DNA from: an uncultured bacterium
GTDB taxonomy: Bacteria > Verrucomicrobiota > Verrucomicrobiia > Verrucomicrobiales > DEV007
Assembly (NCBI GenBank): GCA_963977015.1
Contig: CAXBMO010000001.1
Location: 160,001 to 224,000 of the forward strand
DNA: 64,000 bases
Direction: 5' to 3'
The notes under the pieces are model-generated. The model made no database searches, had not been told where the DNA came from, and saw only the letters and a program-made list of their open reading frames with translations. Every line of letters starts with the position of its first letter. The stretch's first letter is position 1. The position numbers were made by a program, and so were the translations under genes. Shown here one piece after another: positions 18,962-26,253 of this stretch.

Positions 18962-20503
18962 ATGCTGACTCGGGTCTACAGCGCTGCTCTGAATGGTGTG
19001 GATGCCATTGAAGTCGAAATCGAGGTCGATGAGCGTCGTAGCCGGAGCTTTCAGCAGGTGATTGTCGGGTTGCCGGACGCGGCGGTTCGGGAAAGTCGGG
19101 ATCGCGTCTTAACGGCATTGGCGAATTCCAAGCTCAATTTTCCGAAAGGGCATACCACCATCAACCTCGCTCCCGCGAATTTGAAGAAGGAAGGTCCCAG
19201 TTTTGATCTACCCATTGCCTTGGGAGTTGCTGCGCTGATGGATGAGGATTTCAACGATGATGCGTTCGATAAATGCACCATTGTTGGGGAGCTGGCTCTG
19301 AATGGGCGGGTTCGCCCCGTAAATGGAGTGCTGTCCCTGACCCTTGAGGCAAAGCGAAAGGGGCGGAAAGCGATGCTGGTTCCGCAGGAGAACGCCGCTG
19401 AGGCCTCGGTTGTCGAGGGCATCTATGTCTATGGAATCCCGACCCTGAATGACGCGGTAGCGCTCCTCAAGGGGGAGGGGAATATCAAACCGCAGAAGTT
19501 GGATCGGCAGGCCTTTTTTGGAGAGCGCAGCGTATACGACGTCGATTTCGCGGATGTGAAAGGGCAGCTTCATGCGAGGCGAGCACTGGAAGTGGCGATT
19601 GGTGGGGGACACAACGCGCTTCTCGTTGGTCCTCCGGGAACGGGCAAATCCATGATGGCCAAGCGGACGGTGACCATTATGCCGCCGATGACCGAGGAAG
19701 AGGCGATTGAAACGACCAAGATTCACAGTGTGGCCGGATTTTTGGAGAAGGACTCTGGATTTGTCGCGACCAGGCCGTTTCGCAGTCCTCATCACACGAT
19801 TTCCGACGCCGGTCTCCTTGGTGGGACGAGCAATCCGTCGCCCGGTGAAGTGAGTTTGGCTCACAACGGTATTTTGTTTTTGGACGAGCTTCCCGAATTT
19901 CGCCGATCGACCCTCGAGGTGATGCGACAGCCGCTGGAAGATGGCAGAGTCACGATATCGCGAGCGGCCGCCACGTTCACGTTTCCGAGTCGATTCAATC
20001 TCATTGCCGCCATGAATCCCTGCAAATGCGGTTATCTCGGCGATCCAAAGCGGGACTGCTCTTGTTCTGCCGCCGAGATTGAAAATTATCGAAACCGGAT
20101 TTCGGGCCCGCTCCTGGACCGAATTGACCTCCACGTTGAAGTTCCCATGGTCGATTACAAAGAGTTGGCCGCGGAAGAGCGTGGTGAGAGTTCCGAAAAA
20201 ATCCGTGAGCGAGTCATCCGTTGCCGTGAAATCCAGTTGGAACGCTTTTCCTCAGTCCCCGATACAACGTGCAACGGGGCGATGCCACCCAAAGTGATGC
20301 GTCAGCATTGCCGCTTGGATTCCAAGTGCAGCAAAGCCTTGGACGATGCGATGGAGCGCTTGAACTTCAGTGCCAGGGCCCACGATCGAATTCTGAAAGT
20401 GGCCCGGACGCTGGCGGATTTGGAGGCTTCTCCCCATATTCGCGAGGACGATGTTCTGGAGGCGATTCAGTATCGGACGTTGGATCGCCAGTTGTGGCGG
20501 TGA
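18962..20503 (+). CDS. comM: YifB/ComM Mg-chelatase-like AAA+ ATPase
   Basis: IVGLPDAAVRES, NLAPA, GPPGTGKS, PFRSPHHT, LFLDELPEF, AMNPCKCG. Confidence 0.95.
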   Translation: MLTRVYSAALNGVDAIEVEIEVDERRSRSFQQVIVGLPDAAVRESRDRVLTALANSKLNFPKGHTTINLAPANLKKEGPSFDLPIALGVAALMDEDFNDDAFDKCTIVGELALNGRVRPVNGVLSLTLEAKRKGRKAMLVPQENAAEASVVEGIYVYGIPTLNDAVALLKGEGNIKPQKLDRQAFFGERSVYDVDFADVKGQLHARRALEVAIGGGHNALLVGPPGTGKSMMAKRTVTIMPPMTEEEAIETTKIHSVAGFLEKDSGFVATRPFRSPHHTISDAGLLGGTSNPSPGEVSLAHNGILFLDELPEFRRSTLEVMRQPLEDGRVTISRAAATFTFPSRFNLIAAMNPCKCGYLGDPKRDCSCSAAEIENYRNRISGPLLDRIDLHVEVPMVDYKELAAEERGESSEKIRERVIRCREIQLERFSSVPDTTCNGAMPPKVMRQHCRLDSKCSKALDDAMERLNFSARAHDRILKVARTLADLEASPHIREDDVLEAIQYRTLDRQLWR

Positions 20504-20556
20504 ATTGAAGCCCTCTTTCAAATTGCAAAGTAGTTAAGAAAACCTTACTAAGTGGC

Positions 20557-20970
20557 ATGTCGAATGGAACTTGGATTGCGTTTGCTGCGATTGGTCTCGT
20601 TTTCTTCTGGCTCTACAAGTCTGAGCCGGAACCCTACACGCCGTCGAGCGGTGCTGGATTGGTCGAAATCACGCCGGCCAATTTCCAACCTCTCGTGATG
20701 CAGAGCTCCCAACCGGTTCTGGCCTATTTCTGGGCGAGTTGGTGAGGACCGTGCAAACGCGCTTCACCGTTGGTGAAGCAGGCAGCTGGTAAAATTGGAC
20801 CTTCAGGAATTGTGGCGATGATCAATGTCGATCAGAATCCGGAAGCGGCTCGAGCCTTTCAGGTTCGGGGAATTCCCCACCTCGTAGTCATCAAAAACGG
20901 CCAGAAAGTGGAACAGATTCGCCCTGACAACGCGGAACGAATCGCGGCCGCTTTCCAGAAGCACTTCTAG
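20557..20970 (+). CDS. Membrane-anchored thioredoxin with in-frame TGA at the catalytic position (putative selenoprotein, W-U-G-P-C)
   Basis: ORFs 20557-20745 and 20770-20970 are in one frame: ...VLAYFWASW-TGA(20743-20745)-GPCKRASPLV...INVDQNPEAARAFQVRGIPHL. Confidence 0.85.
20761..20779 (+). promoter_or_regulatory. Candidate bacterial SECIS hairpin
   Basis: Perfect 8-bp stem gcttcacc-gtt-ggtgaagc; the loop starts with G and lies 23 nt after the UGA. Confidence 0.65.
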
Positions 20971-20974
20971 TAGT

Positions 20975-23900
20975 TTAGTAAGCCAGATTGGGGCTGAGCC
21001 ATCTCTCGACCTCTTCGATGCTCATGCCCTTGCGCTTCGCATAGTCTTCGACCTGATCTTTGTTGATCTTTCCGACGCCAAAGTAGCGGGCGTCCGGGTG
21101 GGAGTAGTAGATTCCGCTGACGCTTGCCCCGGGATGCATCGCCATGCTTTCCGTGAGGCTCACTCCGGTTTTGCCGGTCGCTTCCAGAATGTCGAAGAGA
21201 ATTGGTTTCTCCGTGTGATCGGGACATGCCGGATATCCTCCCGCTGGACGAATGCCGCGGTATTTTTCGCGAATCAGGTCATCGTGGTCGAGGTTTTCGT
21301 CTTTGCCGAATCCCCAATCTTCGCGCACGCGCTTGTGGAGAAACTCAGCAAAAGCCTCAGCCAACCGGTCCGCCAATGCCTTTGCCATGATTCCCTGATA
21401 GTCGTCATGGTCCGCTTGAAACTCGGCGGCAAACTCGTCGGCGTTGTGCCCGGCCGTGCAGACAAATCCGCCCAGATAGTCCGTTCGTCCCGAATCCTTG
21501 GGCGCGACGAAGTCGGCAAGAGCAAAGTTGGGCTTGTCCTTCTTTTCCATCTGTTGGCGAAGCGTGTGAAATGTGGTCACGACTTCGCCGCGGCTTGTAT
21601 CACCGTAAACTTCGATGTCGTCACCGACGCTGTTTGCGGGCCAGAAACCGTAAATCCCTTTCGCGCCAAAAACCTTCTCATCGACGATTCGGTTCAGGAG
21701 TTGCTGGGCATCATCGAAGAGTTTCTTGGCTTCTTCCCCAACATATTCGTCCTCGAAAATCGCCGGGTAGCGACCGCGGAGTTCCCAAGTGTGGAAGAAG
21801 GGGGACCAATCAATGAACGGAACCAATTCCGACAACTCGGGCTCGACCACCTTCACGCCGACAAAGTTTGGTTCGGCGATTTCCTGCGTTTCCCAATCGC
21901 AGGTGAAACGTCGTTCGCGGGCCGTCTTGATGGGAAGAAGTTTCTTGGCTTCGCCCTTCGCCGCGAATTTTTCTCGAAGGTCCACATGGCGCGCTTCGTT
22001 CTTCTCGACAAACGCGTCGTGTCCATCTTCGCTCAGCAACGAGCTAACCACCGGAACAGAACGAGAGGCGTCCAGAACGTGCACCACCGAGTGATTGTAG
22101 TGGGGGGCGATTTTGATCGCGGTGTGAGCCGGGCTTGTTGTGGCTCCACCAATGAGGAGCGGAATGTCGAATCCTTCGCGCTTCATTTCGGCCGCGACAT
22201 GCATCATTTCGTCGAGCGATGGTGTGATCAATCCGGATAAGCCGATGATGTCCGCGTTTTCTTCTTTGGCACGGGCAAGAATGTCGGCACTCGGAACCAT
22301 TACGCCCATGTCAATCACATCAAAGCCGTTGCAGCCTAACACGACACCTACGATGTTTTTGCCGATGTCGTGAACGTCGCCTTTGACCGTCGCCATGATG
22401 ATCTTGCCGGCCGACTTCTGGTTCGGGTTCGCCTTTTTCTCTTCTTCCATCAATGGCGTCAGCCAGGCCACGGACTTCTTCATCACGCGTGCAGACTTCA
22501 CCACTTGGGGAAGGAACATCTTTCCGGCGCCAAACAGATCGCCGACGATGCTCATCCCATCCATGAGCGGACCTTCGATGACCTTGAGCGGACGCCCATA
22601 TTTTGCGAGCGCCTCTTCCGTGTCTTCATCGATGAAGTCGGTGATTCCCTTCAAAAGTGCATGTTCAAGCCGCTTCTCGACCGTGTCCTCACGCCACTTC
22701 AGGTCGACTTCCTGTTTCTTCCCGGCCTGCCCTTTGAATTGCTCCGCGTAGTCGATGAGGACGTCGGTTGCACCGGAATTCCGGTTCAAAAGCACGTCCT
22801 CGACTTTCTCGAGAAGATCTTTTGGAATCTCGTCGTAAACCTCCAGCATTCCCGCGTTCACGATGCCCATGTCCATTCCGGCTTTCGTCGCGTGATAGAG
22901 GAACGCGGAATGCATGGCTTCACGAACAACGTTGTTGCCGCGAAAACTGAAGGAAATATTGGAAACGCCGCCGCTGACCTTGGCGCCCGGAAGGTTTTCC
23001 TTGATCCAACGCGTCGCATTGATGAAGTCGACCGCATAGTTGTTATGCTCCTCCATCCCGGTCGCGACCGTGAGAATGTTGGGGTCGAAAATGATATCCT
23101 GCGGATTGAAACCGACTTCATCGACGAGAATTCGGTAGGCGCGTTCACAGATCCGGATCTTCTCTTCGTAGGTTGCGGCCTGACCTTTTTCGTCGAATGC
23201 CATCACCACGACAGCGGCGCCATATTTCATGACCTTGCGGGCCGATTCCCTGAATTTTTCTTCACCCTCCTTGAGTGAAATGGAGTTCACGATTCCCTTT
23301 CCCTGAAGGCATTTCAGACCGGCCTCGATCACTTCCCATTTCGATGAGTCGACCATGATGGGGACCGCCGCGACGTCAGGTTCGCCCTGAAGGAGCTTCA
23401 GGAAGTCTGTCATCATTTCAGCCCCATCGATCAGGCCTTCATCCATGCAGATGTCGATGACCGGAGCTCCATTTTCGACCTGTTGGCGAGCCACACTGAC
23501 CGCATCTTCGAGTTTGCCCTCTTTGATGAGTTTGCGAAATCTCGGGGAGCCGGCAACGTTCGTGCGCTCACCAATCATGAGGAAATTCTTGTCCTCGGTG
23601 TGATTGTAAACGTCCGAGCCCGCCAACCGGAGAATGGGCTCGGCTTTCGGCAATGGTCTCGGGGCTCTGCCTTCAAGGGCCTTCGCAATTGCTGCGACGT
23701 GTTCCGGAGTGTTGCCGCAGCAACCGCCTGCAAAGTTCAGGAAGCCGGAATCGGCAAAGTCCGTCATGCATTCCCCCATATCGTCCGGGAGGAGGTCAAA
23801 GCCGGTTGGTGCCAGGGGATTGGGCATTCCGGCATTGGGATAGGCTGAAACATAAGTTTCACACCGTGAACCCAATTCTTCCAGAAATGGGCGCATTTTG

Positions 23901-24736
23901 TCCGGGCCGAGAGAGCAGTTCAACCCAACCGCCAGCGGCTTGACGTGGGCAACCGAGTTCCAGAGTGCTTCAACGCGTTGCGCGGAGATCATGGTCTCGC
24001 CTCCCATTCCGACGGCCGCGGAAACAATCACGGGCAGTTCGATGCCGTCCTTGTCGAAAATGTCTCGAATCGCGACCAGCGCGGCTTTCGAATTCAGGGC
24101 GTCAAAAATGGTTTCGACCATCAGAATGTCCGCGCCTCCCTCGATCAGGGCGCGGATTTGATGCAGATAGCTTTGATAAACCTGGTCGAACGTCACGGTC
24201 CGGAAGCCCGCATCCTCGGCATCGGGTGAAACCGACAACGAAACCGTCATTGGACCGATGGCGCCCGCTACATACCGCTTGCGCCCAGTATCGGATCCAA
24301 TCTCGTCGGCCCACTTTCGGGCCAGCTTGACGGATTCGACATTGATTTCCCAAGCGAGGTCATTGAGGAACTGGTCTTCAATCACCTCCTGATAAAATTC
24401 GGGATCTTTCCGGCCTCCGATCTCTCGGGGATCCTGTTTGAAAAACTCGCTCTGGGCGATGGATGTTCCCGAGAAGGTGTTGGTCTCGACAATGTCCGAA
24501 CCCGCCTCGTAAAACCGTTTGTGGATGTCGCCGATCGTCCCGGGTTGGGTGAGGCTGAGGATGTCTCCGTTATTCAGGAGGTCTTTGGGCGCGTCCTTGA
24601 ATCGAGCGCCTCTCGCATCCGTCTCTGAGTGTCCGTAGCCCCGAATGGTTGTTCCCATGGCCCCGTCCAAGATGAGAATGCGTTCATCGAGAGCTTTTTT
24701 GAGTTCCCGGGTGATATTGGATTCAGCTTCGGACAT
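20975..24736 (-). CDS. metH: Cobalamin-dependent methionine synthase
   Basis: [50 protein letters not shown]. Confidence 0.99.
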
Positions 24737-24945: not shown

Positions 24946-25692
24946 ATGAGCGACTCCGCAAACCAGCCGCCCCGCCCCACAAACAAGACTTCGACAGTTC
25001 CTCTCAAAAAGGAGACTGTGCGGATTACGCTAAAGGCAAAGCCCGGTGAAGGTGCCGGCCCTGCAACTCCAGCAGCCGTTCCACCGCCAAGACCAGCGGG
25101 TGCTGTTCCTGCTCCGGTTCCGACGGCCCCCAAACCAGCCGCTCCAAAACCGGGAGGCATTCCAGCTCCTGCTCCACCAAGGCCAGCTGGCGCGGTCGCT
25201 CCCCCACCGGCCGGTGGGGCTCCAGCTCCAAAGCCTGCACCTCTTCCGACGGCTCCAAAGCCAGCCGCTCCAGTGGGGGCGAAGACGATTCCGTTGGCGA
25301 AGCCACCAGCACCCGGTGGCGGGATCCCTGCTCCGGCGCCAAAAACCGCTCAACTTACTCCCGCTCCCAAAGCTCCCACAGGTGCACGGACCATTCCTTT
25401 GGCCAAAGCGCCTGGTGTTGGTCCTGCGACACCAGCGCCCGGCGGAGCAACTCCGCTGCCCAAGGCCACGGTAAAGCTTCAAAAAACGCAGCCAATGTCA
25501 AAGGGGGCGCCGACCACGGCCCTCAAGCCACCTTCGGCTGCTGGTGCTGCAGCCACGGCGTTTGATGATGACGAGTACGAATATGAAGAGTACGAAGAAG
25601 AAGCCGGTTTGATGCCTTTCGCAGTGATCGTGCTGATTCTTGCCGTGATCGTCCTGTTGATTGAGCTGTTTACCAAATTCAGCGGATCCTAA
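24946..25692 (+). CDS. Pro/Ala-rich disordered protein with acidic patch and C-terminal TM anchor
   Basis: KKETVRITLK motif, PAPKP/TIPLAK repeats, DDDEYEYEEYEEE, terminal hydrophobic helix. Confidence 0.85.
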   Translation: MSDSANQPPRPTNKTSTVPLKKETVRITLKAKPGEGAGPATPAAVPPPRPAGAVPAPVPTAPKPAAPKPGGIPAPAPPRPAGAVAPPPAGGAPAPKPAPLPTAPKPAAPVGAKTIPLAKPPAPGGGIPAPAPKTAQLTPAPKAPTGARTIPLAKAPGVGPATPAPGGATPLPKATVKLQKTQPMSKGAPTTALKPPSAAGAAATAFDDDEYEYEEYEEEAGLMPFAVIVLILAVIVLLIELFTKFSGS

Positions 25693-25926: not shown

Positions 25927-26253
25927 ATGGCAAATTTAATCGAACTTAATGCAGAGAACTTCGCTCAAGAAGTGGAACAAAGTGACGTACCGGTTCTCGT
26001 TGATTACTGGGCTTCCTGGTGCGGACCTTGCCGCATGATTACTCCTATTCTTGAAGAGCTTTCTCAAGATGTCGGTGACAAATTCAAGATCGCGAAGGTC
26101 AATGTCGATGAGCATCAGGACCTCGCTGCTAAATTCGGCGTTCGCAGCCTGCCGACCCTCCTCTTCTTTAAAGGCGGAGAAGTTAAAGACACCGTAGTTG
26201 GCGCAGGAACTCCAAAAGCAGGGCTCCTTCAGAAGCTCGAAGCGCTTGCCTAG
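25927..26253 (+). CDS. trxA: Thioredoxin
   Basis: VLVDYWASWCGPC; FGVRSLPTL. Confidence 0.98.
   Translation: MANLIELNAENFAQEVEQSDVPVLVDYWASWCGPCRMITPILEELSQDVGDKFKIAKVNVDEHQDLAAKFGVRSLPTLLFFKGGEVKDTVVGAGTPKAGLLQKLEALA

Follow-up and report, generated by a model that had tools for sequence, protein, structure and literature searches.

The window, that is the whole stretch of 64,000 nucleotides analysed here, holds on its plus strand a single frame of 137 codons (20557-20970, from ATG at 20557 to TAG at 20968-20970) once an internal TGA is read as selenocysteine (Sec, U). Its position is 20743-20745, with TGG as the codon before it and GGA CCG TGC after it, and the frame then contains the motif FWASWUGPC with a W-U-G-P-C active site. 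The genes and features referred to below are as follows.

18962..20503, plus strand: upstream neighbour, a ComM/Mg-chelatase-like ATPase gene ending in TGA (20501-20503)
20557..20970, plus strand: the whole gene, a putative Sec thioredoxin with an N-terminal helix (PF00085; 12 orthologues of like architecture)
20566..20619, plus strand: hydrophobic N-terminal helix (residues 4-21) that presumably anchors the protein in the membrane (AlphaFold2, Kyte-Doolittle)
20620..20658, plus strand: Pro/Ser/Gly-rich linker, residues 22-34, of varying length among orthologues (low pLDDT, gapped in alignment A3)
20659..20958, plus strand: predicted thioredoxin-fold domain, residues 35-134 (order of strands and helices in the model, Foldseek)
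20743..20745, plus strand: TGA, read as Sec63, the putative attacking residue of W-U-G-P-C (one alignment column in 13 of 13 genes)
20752..20754, plus strand: TGC, the putative resolving Cys66 of UxxC (column invariant in alignment A3)
20761..20779, plus strand: bSECIS-type hairpin with an 8-bp stem and the loop GUU (pairing, folding, conservation in 13 genes)
20875..20877, plus strand: codon of Pro107, which we take to be the cis-proline position of the thioredoxin fold (I106 and P107 both invariant in alignment A3)
20975..24736, minus strand: convergent downstream neighbour metH, B12-dependent methionine synthase (gene neighbourhood)
25927..26187, plus strand: trxA, an ordinary Cys thioredoxin (WCGPC) used as comparator; the coordinates cover the part without the gene's end

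A previous reading, made from the sequence only, had described a TGA in place of the nucleophilic Cys of WCGPC, a frame of 137 residues running through it, and a neighbouring trxA with the motif YWASWCGPC. All three descriptions hold: the TGA stands where it was reported, the frame is continuous with TGA taken as U, and the window's own trxA reads DYWASWCGPC. In the alignment, U63 falls on the first Cys of WCGPC both in the one membrane-anchored Cys form that was found (genome G019) and in 21 Cys thioredoxins. The protein scores 80.2 bits against the Pfam model PF00085 (gathering cut-off 23.5; residues 36-131), and its 76.5 bits against TIGR01068 stay below the equivalog cut-off of 96.8; it is therefore a thioredoxin-family protein and not the housekeeping TrxA. 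The complete thioredoxin fold and the N-terminal helix proposed in the sequence-only reading both appear in an AlphaFold2 model (mean pLDDT 88), which predicts a helix at residues 4-21 followed by the thioredoxin fold. Within the model the thioredoxin domain reaches a pLDDT of 94-97 and residues 21-30 a pLDDT of 52, and residue 63 is placed at the N-terminus of a helix spanning 64-83, the one that follows strand 2. A Foldseek comparison with the PDB returned thioredoxins as best matches (E from 1.9e-11, target TM 0.8-0.9).

Under translation table 11 the frame breaks into ORFs at 20557-20745 and 20770-20970, and public gene calls stop at the TGA: all four N-terminal fragments that were looked up are listed as proteins of 60-64 aa. 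The expectation that gene callers would split the gene in two was thus borne out for its N-terminal fragment, which ends at the TGA in each of these four cases. What stands in the public record for these cases is a peptide of some 62 residues that has no meaning of its own, an annotation that the present analysis corrects.

Contigs of two studies (X1, X2 and X4) cover positions 20743-20745 and carry only TGA there. X2 and X4 are identical to the window across the TGA, and X1 differs from the window at five other sites and is therefore a separate assembly, which still has TGA. These are contigs, not raw reads; X2 to X4 are possibly the source of the window itself, and X3 and X4 leave parts of the stretch uncovered. 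X1 further contains an extra A after 20892 (depth 4.1), which may shift the last ~25 codons in that strain or may itself be an assembly error. The sequence-only reading had named TGC or TGT in the reads as evidence against itself, and the contigs of the other assemblies show TGA. Nothing was found that speaks for a TGC or TGT turned into TGA by a sequencing or assembly error, and such an error can practically be dismissed, as X1, X2 and X4, with X1 being a separate assembly, all read TGA and 12 other genomes have a TGA at the like site.

These 12 genomes and that of the window came from a search of the bacterial family to which the window belongs (134 genomes), where the best match contained a single TGA in 13 genomes from 7 genera. 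In all 13 genes the TGA occupies the same alignment column and stands in the context FWAxW-U-GxC, with the 12 orthologues sharing 34-74% identity with the window protein. No Sec-form orthologue was found in 400 genomes from the rest of the phylum. One match of that search with a single TGA (G437) was rejected as a Sec form; its TGA precedes the start of an ordinary trxA. Likewise, a search of ~5.8 billion predicted proteins yielded no full-length relative. A scan of genome contigs with the Cys-substituted pattern YFWAxWCG returned 80 mostly cyanobacterial Cys thioredoxins of 34-50% identity and, the pattern being a Cys pattern, is uninformative on TGA forms. A metagenome scan for FWAxW-TGA-GxxC gave at least 120 matches. 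Among those listed, about six are chance matches lacking an open frame (L164, L172, L173, L196, L235, L244) and the remainder belong to other Sec thioredoxin-fold families, with most of the listed matches being of the anchored TlpA/ResA/DsbE type. None of the 120 metagenome matches listed has the hairpin register described below for the present clade (at most 6 of 8 pairs), and therefore no orthologues were gained. As far as searched, the clade appears to be confined to one bacterial family.

Between G000 and G002, dN/dS amounts to 0.076 for the part preceding the TGA and to 0.092 for the part following it, with synonymous sites being saturated; ten further pairs gave values of 0.12-0.33. As judged from this substitution pattern, the part after the TGA is under purifying selection and translated. 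These data bear on the idea that the locus is a membrane-thioredoxin pseudogene carrying a nonsense mutation, or else two unrelated ORFs of 62 aa and 66 aa. Although the break under table 11 and the presence of the 62-aa piece in public gene calls fit such a reading, it is extremely improbable: 13 genomes from 7 genera all retain the TGA across the range of protein identity given above, dN/dS after the TGA is about 0.09 (again at saturated synonymous sites), and a thioredoxin fold requires both halves.

The genome contains the components needed to decode UGA as Sec. A tRNA-Sec is found at 61.8 bits (Rfam model, cut-off 47), with the anticodon UCA in the anticodon loop CUUCAAA; ARAGORN called no tRNA at this locus. 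In addition, selA (498 bits), selB (293 bits) and selD (375.7 bits) were identified, the latter with an in-frame TGA of its own in the context CAGU-ASK, and all four components score above curated cut-offs. Both a search for this machinery and a look for TGA/TGC alternation among orthologues had been proposed as checks of the selenoprotein reading. The machinery is present, including the tRNA with UCA anticodon, and alternation does occur among the orthologues, where it tracks the Sec machinery. Of the genomes with a TGA form, 12 of 13 contain selA; it was not found in G014 (90% complete, 720 contigs), which has selD (260 bits) and tRNA-Sec (60.9 bits). In G019, with its membrane-anchored Cys form, neither selA nor selD nor tRNA-Sec was found above the cut-offs.

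The hairpin reported in the sequence-only reading, with 8 perfect base pairs, a loop starting with G, and a distance of 23 nt downstream of the TGA, was confirmed. Its 5′ stem (20761-20768, GCTTCACC) and 3′ stem (20772-20779, GGTGAAGC) enclose the loop GTT (20769-20771), the first base of which is G and which starts 23 nt past the last base of the TGA. The 27-nt hairpin piece folds with -12.5 kcal/mol (z = -2.72), a value equally reached by 2 of 200 shuffles. The hairpin had also been said to be absent after the trxA Cys codon; the piece in the same register there gives 0 kcal/mol. Taken from the window sequence alone, the full 60 nt after the TGA are unexceptional (z = -0.84; 36 of 200 shuffles as good). 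That the hairpin is more than a chance structure follows from the comparison with its relatives, i.e., of Sec with Cys forms: 6-8 of the 8 pairs can form in 13 of 13 TGA-form genes, versus 1-5 in 21 of 21 Cys-form genes. In all 13 TGA-form genes the hairpin lies at equal distance from the TGA, the first loop base is G, and the second is U or G.

Four consecutive third-codon positions (columns 24, 27, 30 and 33) show no variation among the 13 Sec forms, and each of the four varies among the 21 Cys forms. In column 30 the base stays G in the Sec forms while the encoded amino acid is L, E, A, V or S. With the partner columns in register, 87.5% of the cells of the hairpin helix are paired; sliding the partner columns lowers this share to 37.5-60.6%. 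Covariation is modest, with both sides changing in one of the eight pairs (a compensatory pair that is U-A in seven genes, C-G in three and U-G in one) and three pairs never varying. The covariation score was reached by 5 of 500 shuffles, where kinship alone can beat shuffles even without structure, and RNAalifold predicts the inner five pairs only, with a covariation term near 0. Published bSECIS criteria are a loop of 3-9 nt, an upper stem of 4-16 bp, a spacing of 16-37 nt, a G among the first two loop bases and an MFE of at most -7.5 kcal/mol (PMC13188914, Fig. 2 legend). By the values in this legend the window hairpin qualifies on every count (a 3-nt loop that begins with G and then U, an 8-bp stem, a 23-nt spacing and an MFE of -12.5 kcal/mol). 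An MFE of -7.5 kcal/mol or lower is reached by 8 of the 13 hairpins, the other five being weaker (-5.7 to -6.8 kcal/mol for the 27-nt piece).

From these comparisons of sequences, the gene very probably encodes a Sec-containing W-U-G-P-C disulfide reductase of 137 residues with a thioredoxin fold, the UGA of which is decoded by means of the hairpin as SECIS. During translation, the UGA at 20743-20745 would be decoded as selenocysteine, with the hairpin, 15-37 nt downstream and within the coding sequence, working as a bacterial SECIS that would bring SelB with Sec-tRNA(Sec) to the ribosome while the UGA occupies the A site. In the finished protein the selenolate of Sec63 would attack the disulfide of a substrate, and Cys66 would resolve the mixed selenenylsulfide.

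Purifying selection on the full-length frame shows read-through and not the identity of the inserted residue, and it would also fit a full-length, selenium-free protein, with the UGA being read by near-cognate Trp or Cys insertion, under a reassigned code, or as Cys via the Sec pathway. As the comM-like gene upstream stops at an ordinary TGA and 5 of the 13 Sec-form orthologues end in TGA themselves, TGA is a normal stop here and the code is not reassigned. Moreover, every genome with the TGA form has Sec components, and none were found in the genome with the Cys form. A SECIS-type hairpin whose synonymous sites are frozen serves no purpose in simple read-through, and a W-W-G-P-C protein would lack the catalytic nucleophile. 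A non-Sec residue at this position thus appears very improbable.

The N-terminal helix would tether the thioredoxin domain to the cytoplasmic membrane through the flexible linker. In 12 of the 13 Sec forms, a hydrophobic stretch of 17 residues has a mean Kyte-Doolittle value of 1.76-2.2; the remaining one (G036), the start of which is uncertain, reaches 0.85. An N-terminal tail with one or two K/R was scored in 10 of the 13 Sec forms, or in 11 if the Lys of G014 is included, which the scoring window put at the start of the hydrophobic stretch. Together with the Cys form, a tail of 2-4 residues with one or two K/R is found in 11 of 14 proteins (10 Sec forms and the Cys form), and the flank that follows the helix is neutral or acidic in most of them. 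The window protein itself has no K/R before the helix and one K right after it, and the flank after the helix in G014 is positive (4 K/R versus 1 D/E). Hence, the charge bias weakly favours an N-in orientation for the majority of orthologues, with the window protein and G014 as exceptions.

We lean towards a thioredoxin domain that faces the periplasm. It is conceivable, although in our view rather unlikely, that the protein is a real selenoprotein with its domain at the cytoplasmic face of the inner membrane, where thioredoxin reductase would reduce it and DsbD would be uninvolved. The charges of the window protein and of G014 point in this direction. So does the domain itself, which is nearest to classical cytoplasmic thioredoxins (WCGPC-type motif, with PF00085 and TIGR01068 as best models) and not to TlpA/ResA/DsbE, and no cleavable signal-peptide site is evident when judged by eye. 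However, the tails and flanks of the majority form the usual pattern of N-in, C-out signal anchors, and the DsbD of the genome is able to provide electrons. We also count against a cytoplasmic domain that the N-terminally anchored bacterial thioredoxin-fold proteins known to us are extracytoplasmic.

With a periplasmic domain, the single Sec-carrying DsbD of the genome would keep the Sec-thioredoxin reduced, and the latter would hand electrons to envelope targets. The genome has just one DsbD_TM gene, a frame of 766 residues that contains a single TGA in the context DW-U-LTC; its putative Sec site lies in the C-terminal thioredoxin-like domain. A DsbD match with one TGA is found in 12 of the 13 Sec-thioredoxin genomes versus 45 of 134 overall, the position of the TGA having been verified for G000; this co-occurrence is confounded by shared ancestry. 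DsbD is a possible upstream partner of the Sec-thioredoxin. Going further, the disulfide-reducing chain of the envelope in this lineage of marine bacteria might be selenium-based at two successive steps, from Sec-DsbD to the tethered W-U-G-P-C thioredoxin, with the two genes gained or converted together, a proposal that is speculative and on the whole doubtful. If it were true, the Sec-thioredoxin would be a reductase dedicated to fast work in the periplasm, such as repairing oxidised proteins of the envelope in oxic sea water. The gene neighbourhoods of the orthologues contain no neighbour conserved across genera (metH also adjoins the gene in G002, not in other genera), and the context therefore gives no functional clue. 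Taken as a whole, the explanation that joins the core reading to the anchoring and partners suggested here is, in our judgement, very likely the best one, with the anchoring and the partners as its less certain parts.

With this gene, the Sec-thioredoxin family gains a clade that is predicted to be membrane-anchored and has a SECIS both clean and conserved. The 19-nt hairpin in the 13 sequences of this clade provides a compact natural example of how a SECIS constrains coding sequence. The gene and the Sec-DsbD that accompanies it in the genome suggest a role of selenium in the envelope redox chain of some marine bacteria. The general picture of bacterial selenoproteomes is unchanged, as thioredoxin-fold UxxC proteins already are their commonest class.

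The novelty claimed in the sequence-only reading was overrated, as UxxC thioredoxin selenoproteins are an established family that is abundant in marine metagenomes. Sec-thioredoxin (Trx, PF00085, UxxC) is listed among the experimentally supported prokaryotic selenoproteins (PMC13188914) and has been reported in Geobacter, Anaeromyxobacter, Carboxydothermus and Treponema denticola (PMC1794560), and a group named "Trx-like 1" comprises 321 sequences from 42 GOS samples (PMC2398784). The present proteins resemble the known Sec-thioredoxins in belonging to PF00085, in carrying Sec for the attacking N-terminal Cys of WCGPC, in having the SECIS hairpin in the coding sequence just past the UGA, and in the commonness of Cys homologues. 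Unlike them, the present clade adds a hydrophobic N-terminal helix and a variable linker, and with ~137 aa versus roughly 105 it is set apart by description from the T. denticola and Geobacter proteins. The available sections of the three papers make no mention of a membrane anchor for Sec-thioredoxin, and the words "transmembrane" and "signal peptide" are absent from the main text of PMC2398784. A description of an anchored bacterial Sec-thioredoxin was not found in the parts of the literature covered; the supplementary tables of these papers may list such sequences. The hairpin register of soluble metagenome Sec-Trx ORFs (VDFWAEWUGGC type) also differs from that of the present clade.

Anchored thioredoxin-fold proteins with Sec are known from the periplasmic thiol:disulfide oxidoreductases of the TlpA/ResA/CcmG/DsbE/StoA type, of which Sec forms appear as "Prx-like thiol:disulfide oxidoreductase", "UGC-containing TlpA family" and "Redoxin family protein" (PMC13188914). 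Like this type, the present protein has a presumed anchor at its N-terminus and behind it a thioredoxin-fold domain whose motif is of the W-x-x-x-C kind, and it would be expected to depend on DsbD or CcdA for electrons. Unlike TlpA/ResA/DsbE, it is predicted by the model to have the compact classical thioredoxin layout of ~100 residues. The window protein also scores below the cut-offs of Redoxin and AhpC-TSA (PF08534, 19.8 vs 26.6; PF00578, 20.1 vs 26), TIGR00385 (32.7 vs 123), ResA (NF002854, 25.2 vs 170) and TlpA (NF047696, 19.4 vs 230). With canonical TrxA (TIGR01068, NF006898) it has in common the fold, W-x-G-P-C, the conserved Pro taken as the cis-Pro and the structures that match best, but it differs in having Sec for Cys, the N-terminal helix and the linker, and it is 38% identical to the genome's trxA. 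Sec-DsbD (family "Thiol:disulfide interchange protein") resembles it in the UxxC site within a thioredoxin-like domain, in a presumed part in envelope disulfide reduction and in the annotation being truncated at the TGA. DsbD is, however, a multi-domain membrane protein of 766 residues from a different family and no functional homologue. What sets the present proteins apart is the N-terminal helix with its linker, the narrow clade and the co-occurrence with a Sec-containing DsbD.

The putative Sec-thioredoxin gene holds a single in-frame TGA (20743–20745), preceded by TGG and followed by GGA CCG TGC. With this TGA taken as selenocysteine (U) the frame encodes 137 residues, including the motif FWASW-U-GPC, while a reading with table 11 splits it into two ORFs (20557–20745 and 20770–20970).

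Features of the gene and its hairpin
20557–20970, + strand: putative Sec-thioredoxin gene, ATG start, TAG end
20761–20768, + strand: 5′ stem of the hairpin, GCTTCACC, pairing with 20772–20779
20769–20771, + strand: hairpin loop GTT, starting 23 nt past the TGA
20772–20779, + strand: 3′ stem of the hairpin, GGTGAAGC, pairing with 20761–20768

The ordinary Cys thioredoxin of the window (trxA), which lies about 5 kb away, reads DYWASWCGPC. The frame is as described by the sequence-only reading, in which the TGA takes the place of the attacking Cys of WCGPC and the neighbouring trxA carries YWASWCGPC. As the upstream comM gene terminates with TGA (20501–20503) and five of 13 orthologues also use it as their terminal stop, TGA is otherwise a stop codon in this genome. 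Between metH and trxA lies an ORF of 248 aa (24946–25692, + strand) which is extremely Pro/Ala-rich and has a patch of acidic residues and, at its C-terminus, a hydrophobic segment.

The base calls were compared over 20400–21100 with contigs, not raw reads, of four public sequencing runs (X1–X4), of which X2–X4 may be the window's own source. The contigs of X2 (20442–20870) and X4 (20701–20851) exhibited zero differences. The closely related X1 contig, which covers the whole stretch, differs at five other sites (five substitutions in 701 bases) and by small indels. TGC or TGT, which in raw reads would have counted against the first reading, does not occur in these contigs, X1, X2 and X4 showing no other letter at the TGA. 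Within the gene, X1 additionally shows one inserted A behind 20892 (depth 4.1), and just past the stop it has small indels at 20971–20973. If real, the inserted A would shift the last ~25 codons; it reflects either a strain with a shifted C-terminus or an assembly error.

Between the window's genome (G000) and its relative G002, dN/dS was 0.076 upstream and 0.092 downstream of the TGA, with synonymous sites near saturation. For the downstream part, ten further pairs yielded values of 0.12–0.33. Judged by these substitution patterns, a dead 3′ half would not show such dN/dS, and the gene appears clearly to be translated through the UGA.

All four Sec components are present in the window's genome (6.9 Mb, 51 contigs, 95% complete), so that the search for selA, selB, selC and selD which had been proposed as a check found each of them. 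selA scored 498 bits, selB 293 bits and tRNA-Sec 61.8 bits against a cut-off of 47 (Rfam model). As the anticodon loop of the latter reads CUUCAAA, its anticodon is UCA. ARAGORN makes no call at this locus (L001 1501–1595, − strand), and pipelines depending on this program would record the genome as being without selC. The selenophosphate synthetase is itself a predicted selenoprotein, because selD contains one in-frame TGA; this situation is known from many bacteria.

Further loci in the window's genome and in the relative G019
G000:C5:255715–256644 (locus L009 568–2538), − strand: selD, 376 bits, one in-frame TGA in SSCAGU-ASK
G000:C12:129192–131489 (locus L270 862–3162), − strand: DsbD, the only DsbD_TM match in the genome
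L028 1501–1911, + strand: Cys form of G019 with TGC, SATWCGPC, same membrane-anchored architecture

Six-frame searches, first in 60 relatives and afterwards in the whole set of 134 family genomes (E ≤ 1e-20, a threshold which more divergent forms may have escaped) yielded a best match with exactly one TGA in 13 family genomes from seven genera. The TGA lies within FWAxW-U-GxC in every one of them, and each of the 13 proteins runs from a short N-tail through a hydrophobic stretch and a linker of variable length into a complete thioredoxin domain; the orthologues are 34–74% identical to the window protein. Outside the family, the TGA form was found neither in 24 genomes of the same order nor in 400 genomes drawn from the phylum. 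A hit flagged in G437 is not a Sec form, its TGA being located upstream of a normal trxA start.

The proposed look for TGA/TGC alternation revealed, next to the 13 TGA forms, one TGC form (G019). At the SECIS position the latter lacks a hairpin (3/8 pairs), and selA, selD and tRNA-Sec were not detected above the cut-offs in its genome. Together with the Sec forms it makes up a natural Sec/Cys pair usable for comparative biochemistry. Of the 134 family genomes, 83 contain selA, among them 12 of the 13 with the TGA form. In the remaining one (G014; 90% complete, 720 contigs) selA was not found, and selD (260 bits) and tRNA-Sec (60.9 bits) were.

The 8-bp hairpin with a G-starting loop reported 23 nt downstream of the TGA was confirmed, as was its absence after the trxA Cys codon, where the equivalent piece is unstructured. 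The 27-nt hairpin piece folds with −12.5 kcal/mol (z = −2.72; 2 of 200 shuffles equally stable). The full 60 nt downstream of the TGA are, taken alone, unexceptional against shuffles (z = −0.84). This folding of a single sequence is suggestive only, and the case for a SECIS element therefore rests on the comparison with relatives. The bSECIS consensus in the Fig. 2 legend of PMC13188914 comprises an apical loop of 3–9 nt, an upper stem of 4–16 bp, a G within the first two loop nucleotides, mostly with G or U after it, a UGA-to-loop distance of 16–37 nt and an MFE ≤ −7.5 kcal/mol. With its loop of 3 nt, stem of 8 bp, G followed by U, spacing of 23 nt and −12.5 kcal/mol, the window hairpin lies within all these limits.

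Among the 13 Sec forms the first loop base is always G and the second U (ten) or G (three). Of the cells of the helix 87.5% are paired; with the 3′ partners slid by 1–3 columns the share falls to 37.5–60.6%. Three pairs are invariant and one shows compensatory change (U-A 7, C-G 3, U-G 1). The covariation score was matched by 5 of 500 shuffles; RNAalifold retains the inner five pairs with a covariation term of essentially nil. Sharper evidence than pair covariation comes from frozen codon third positions: in 13/13 Sec forms these are A at alignment column 24 and G at columns 27, 30 and 33, and at column 30 the base stays G though the residue may be L, E, A, V or S. In 21 Cys thioredoxins from related genomes all four positions vary freely. 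Of the eight pairs, 6–8 form in Sec forms and 1–5 in Cys forms. The 27-nt piece reaches ≤ −7.5 kcal/mol in eight of 13, the other five being weaker (−5.7 to −6.8). Taken across relatives, these patterns show a SECIS-type hairpin under RNA-level constraint. By analogy with bacterial Sec decoding, SelB with Sec-tRNA(Sec) would bind this hairpin and decode the UGA.

Among ~5.8 billion predicted proteins no full-length relative was found, only ordinary thioredoxins of 101–109 aa covering 59–76% of the query. That gene callers break the gene at the TGA had been anticipated, and N-terminal fragments ending there are indeed recorded as proteins of 60–64 aa in all four genomes looked up.

The protein matches Pfam PF00085 (80.2 bits). 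Its best NCBIfam model is the canonical thioredoxin TIGR01068 (76.5 bits, below the cut-off of 96.8); no selenoprotein-specific NCBIfam model matched, and the TlpA, ResA and DsbE models scored far below their cut-offs. An AlphaFold2 model (14-sequence alignment, mean pLDDT 88) exhibits the N-terminal helix (4–21) and the complete thioredoxin fold proposed for the 137-aa protein, joined by a low-confidence linker (22–34). Foldseek against the PDB returned thioredoxins (top 6ckp, E 1.9e-11; many at TM (target) 0.8–0.9). Residue 63 is located at the N-terminus of helix 64–83. From what is known of thioredoxins, Sec63 would be the attacking nucleophile and Cys66 would resolve the selenenylsulfide. 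The N-terminal helix would anchor the domain to the inner membrane. In 11 of 14 sequences one or two K/R come before this helix; the flanks past it are mostly neutral or acidic. The window protein and that of G014 depart from this pattern. These charges weakly favour a periplasmic domain, a placement towards which we lean somewhat.

The DsbD frame (766 residues) contains a single TGA, in FTADW-U-LTC of the C-terminal thioredoxin-like domain. DsbD matches with one in-frame TGA occur in 45 of the 134 family genomes, against 13 with the Sec-thioredoxin, including a few from genera without a selA hit (e.g., G142 and G143 in g11); the TGA position was verified in G000 only. Such a match is present in 12 of the 13 Sec-thioredoxin genomes (exception G014). 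This co-occurrence fits a shared pathway and is confounded by relatedness. No neighbour of the Sec-thioredoxin gene recurs across genera.

A metagenome scan for FWAxW-TGA-GxxC returned at least 120 loci (L140–L259), the motif being very common. Among the matches listed, nearly all are open Sec thioredoxin-fold frames of other families, most being TlpA/ResA-like ORFs that stay open for ~100 codons or more both before and after the TGA and several being soluble VDFWAEW-U-GGC thioredoxins (soil, sediment, marine). Marine metagenomes that contain the window's DNA agree with the presumed marine origin of this Verrucomicrobiota lineage.

Machinery, orthologues, conserved hairpin and dN/dS support the selenoprotein interpretation, and we regard the gene as very probably a genuine selenoprotein gene. 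In the parts of the literature consulted, Sec-containing thioredoxin (PF00085, UxxC) is an established prokaryotic selenoprotein (PMC13188914), reported from genomes of Geobacter, Anaeromyxobacter, Carboxydothermus and Treponema denticola (PMC1794560), and in the GOS marine data 'Trx-like 1' (UxxC) ranked third in abundance among prokaryotic selenoprotein families (321 sequences, 42 samples; PMC2398784). No published account of a membrane-anchored Sec-thioredoxin from bacteria turned up in the parts of the literature searched. With the same PF00085 domain and UxxC motif, the window protein is of a well-known kind, and its architectural difference from known Sec-thioredoxins is modest; its clade stands out by its anchor and linker, by a hairpin that is both compact and conserved, by its narrow range of taxa and by being paired with a Sec-DsbD.
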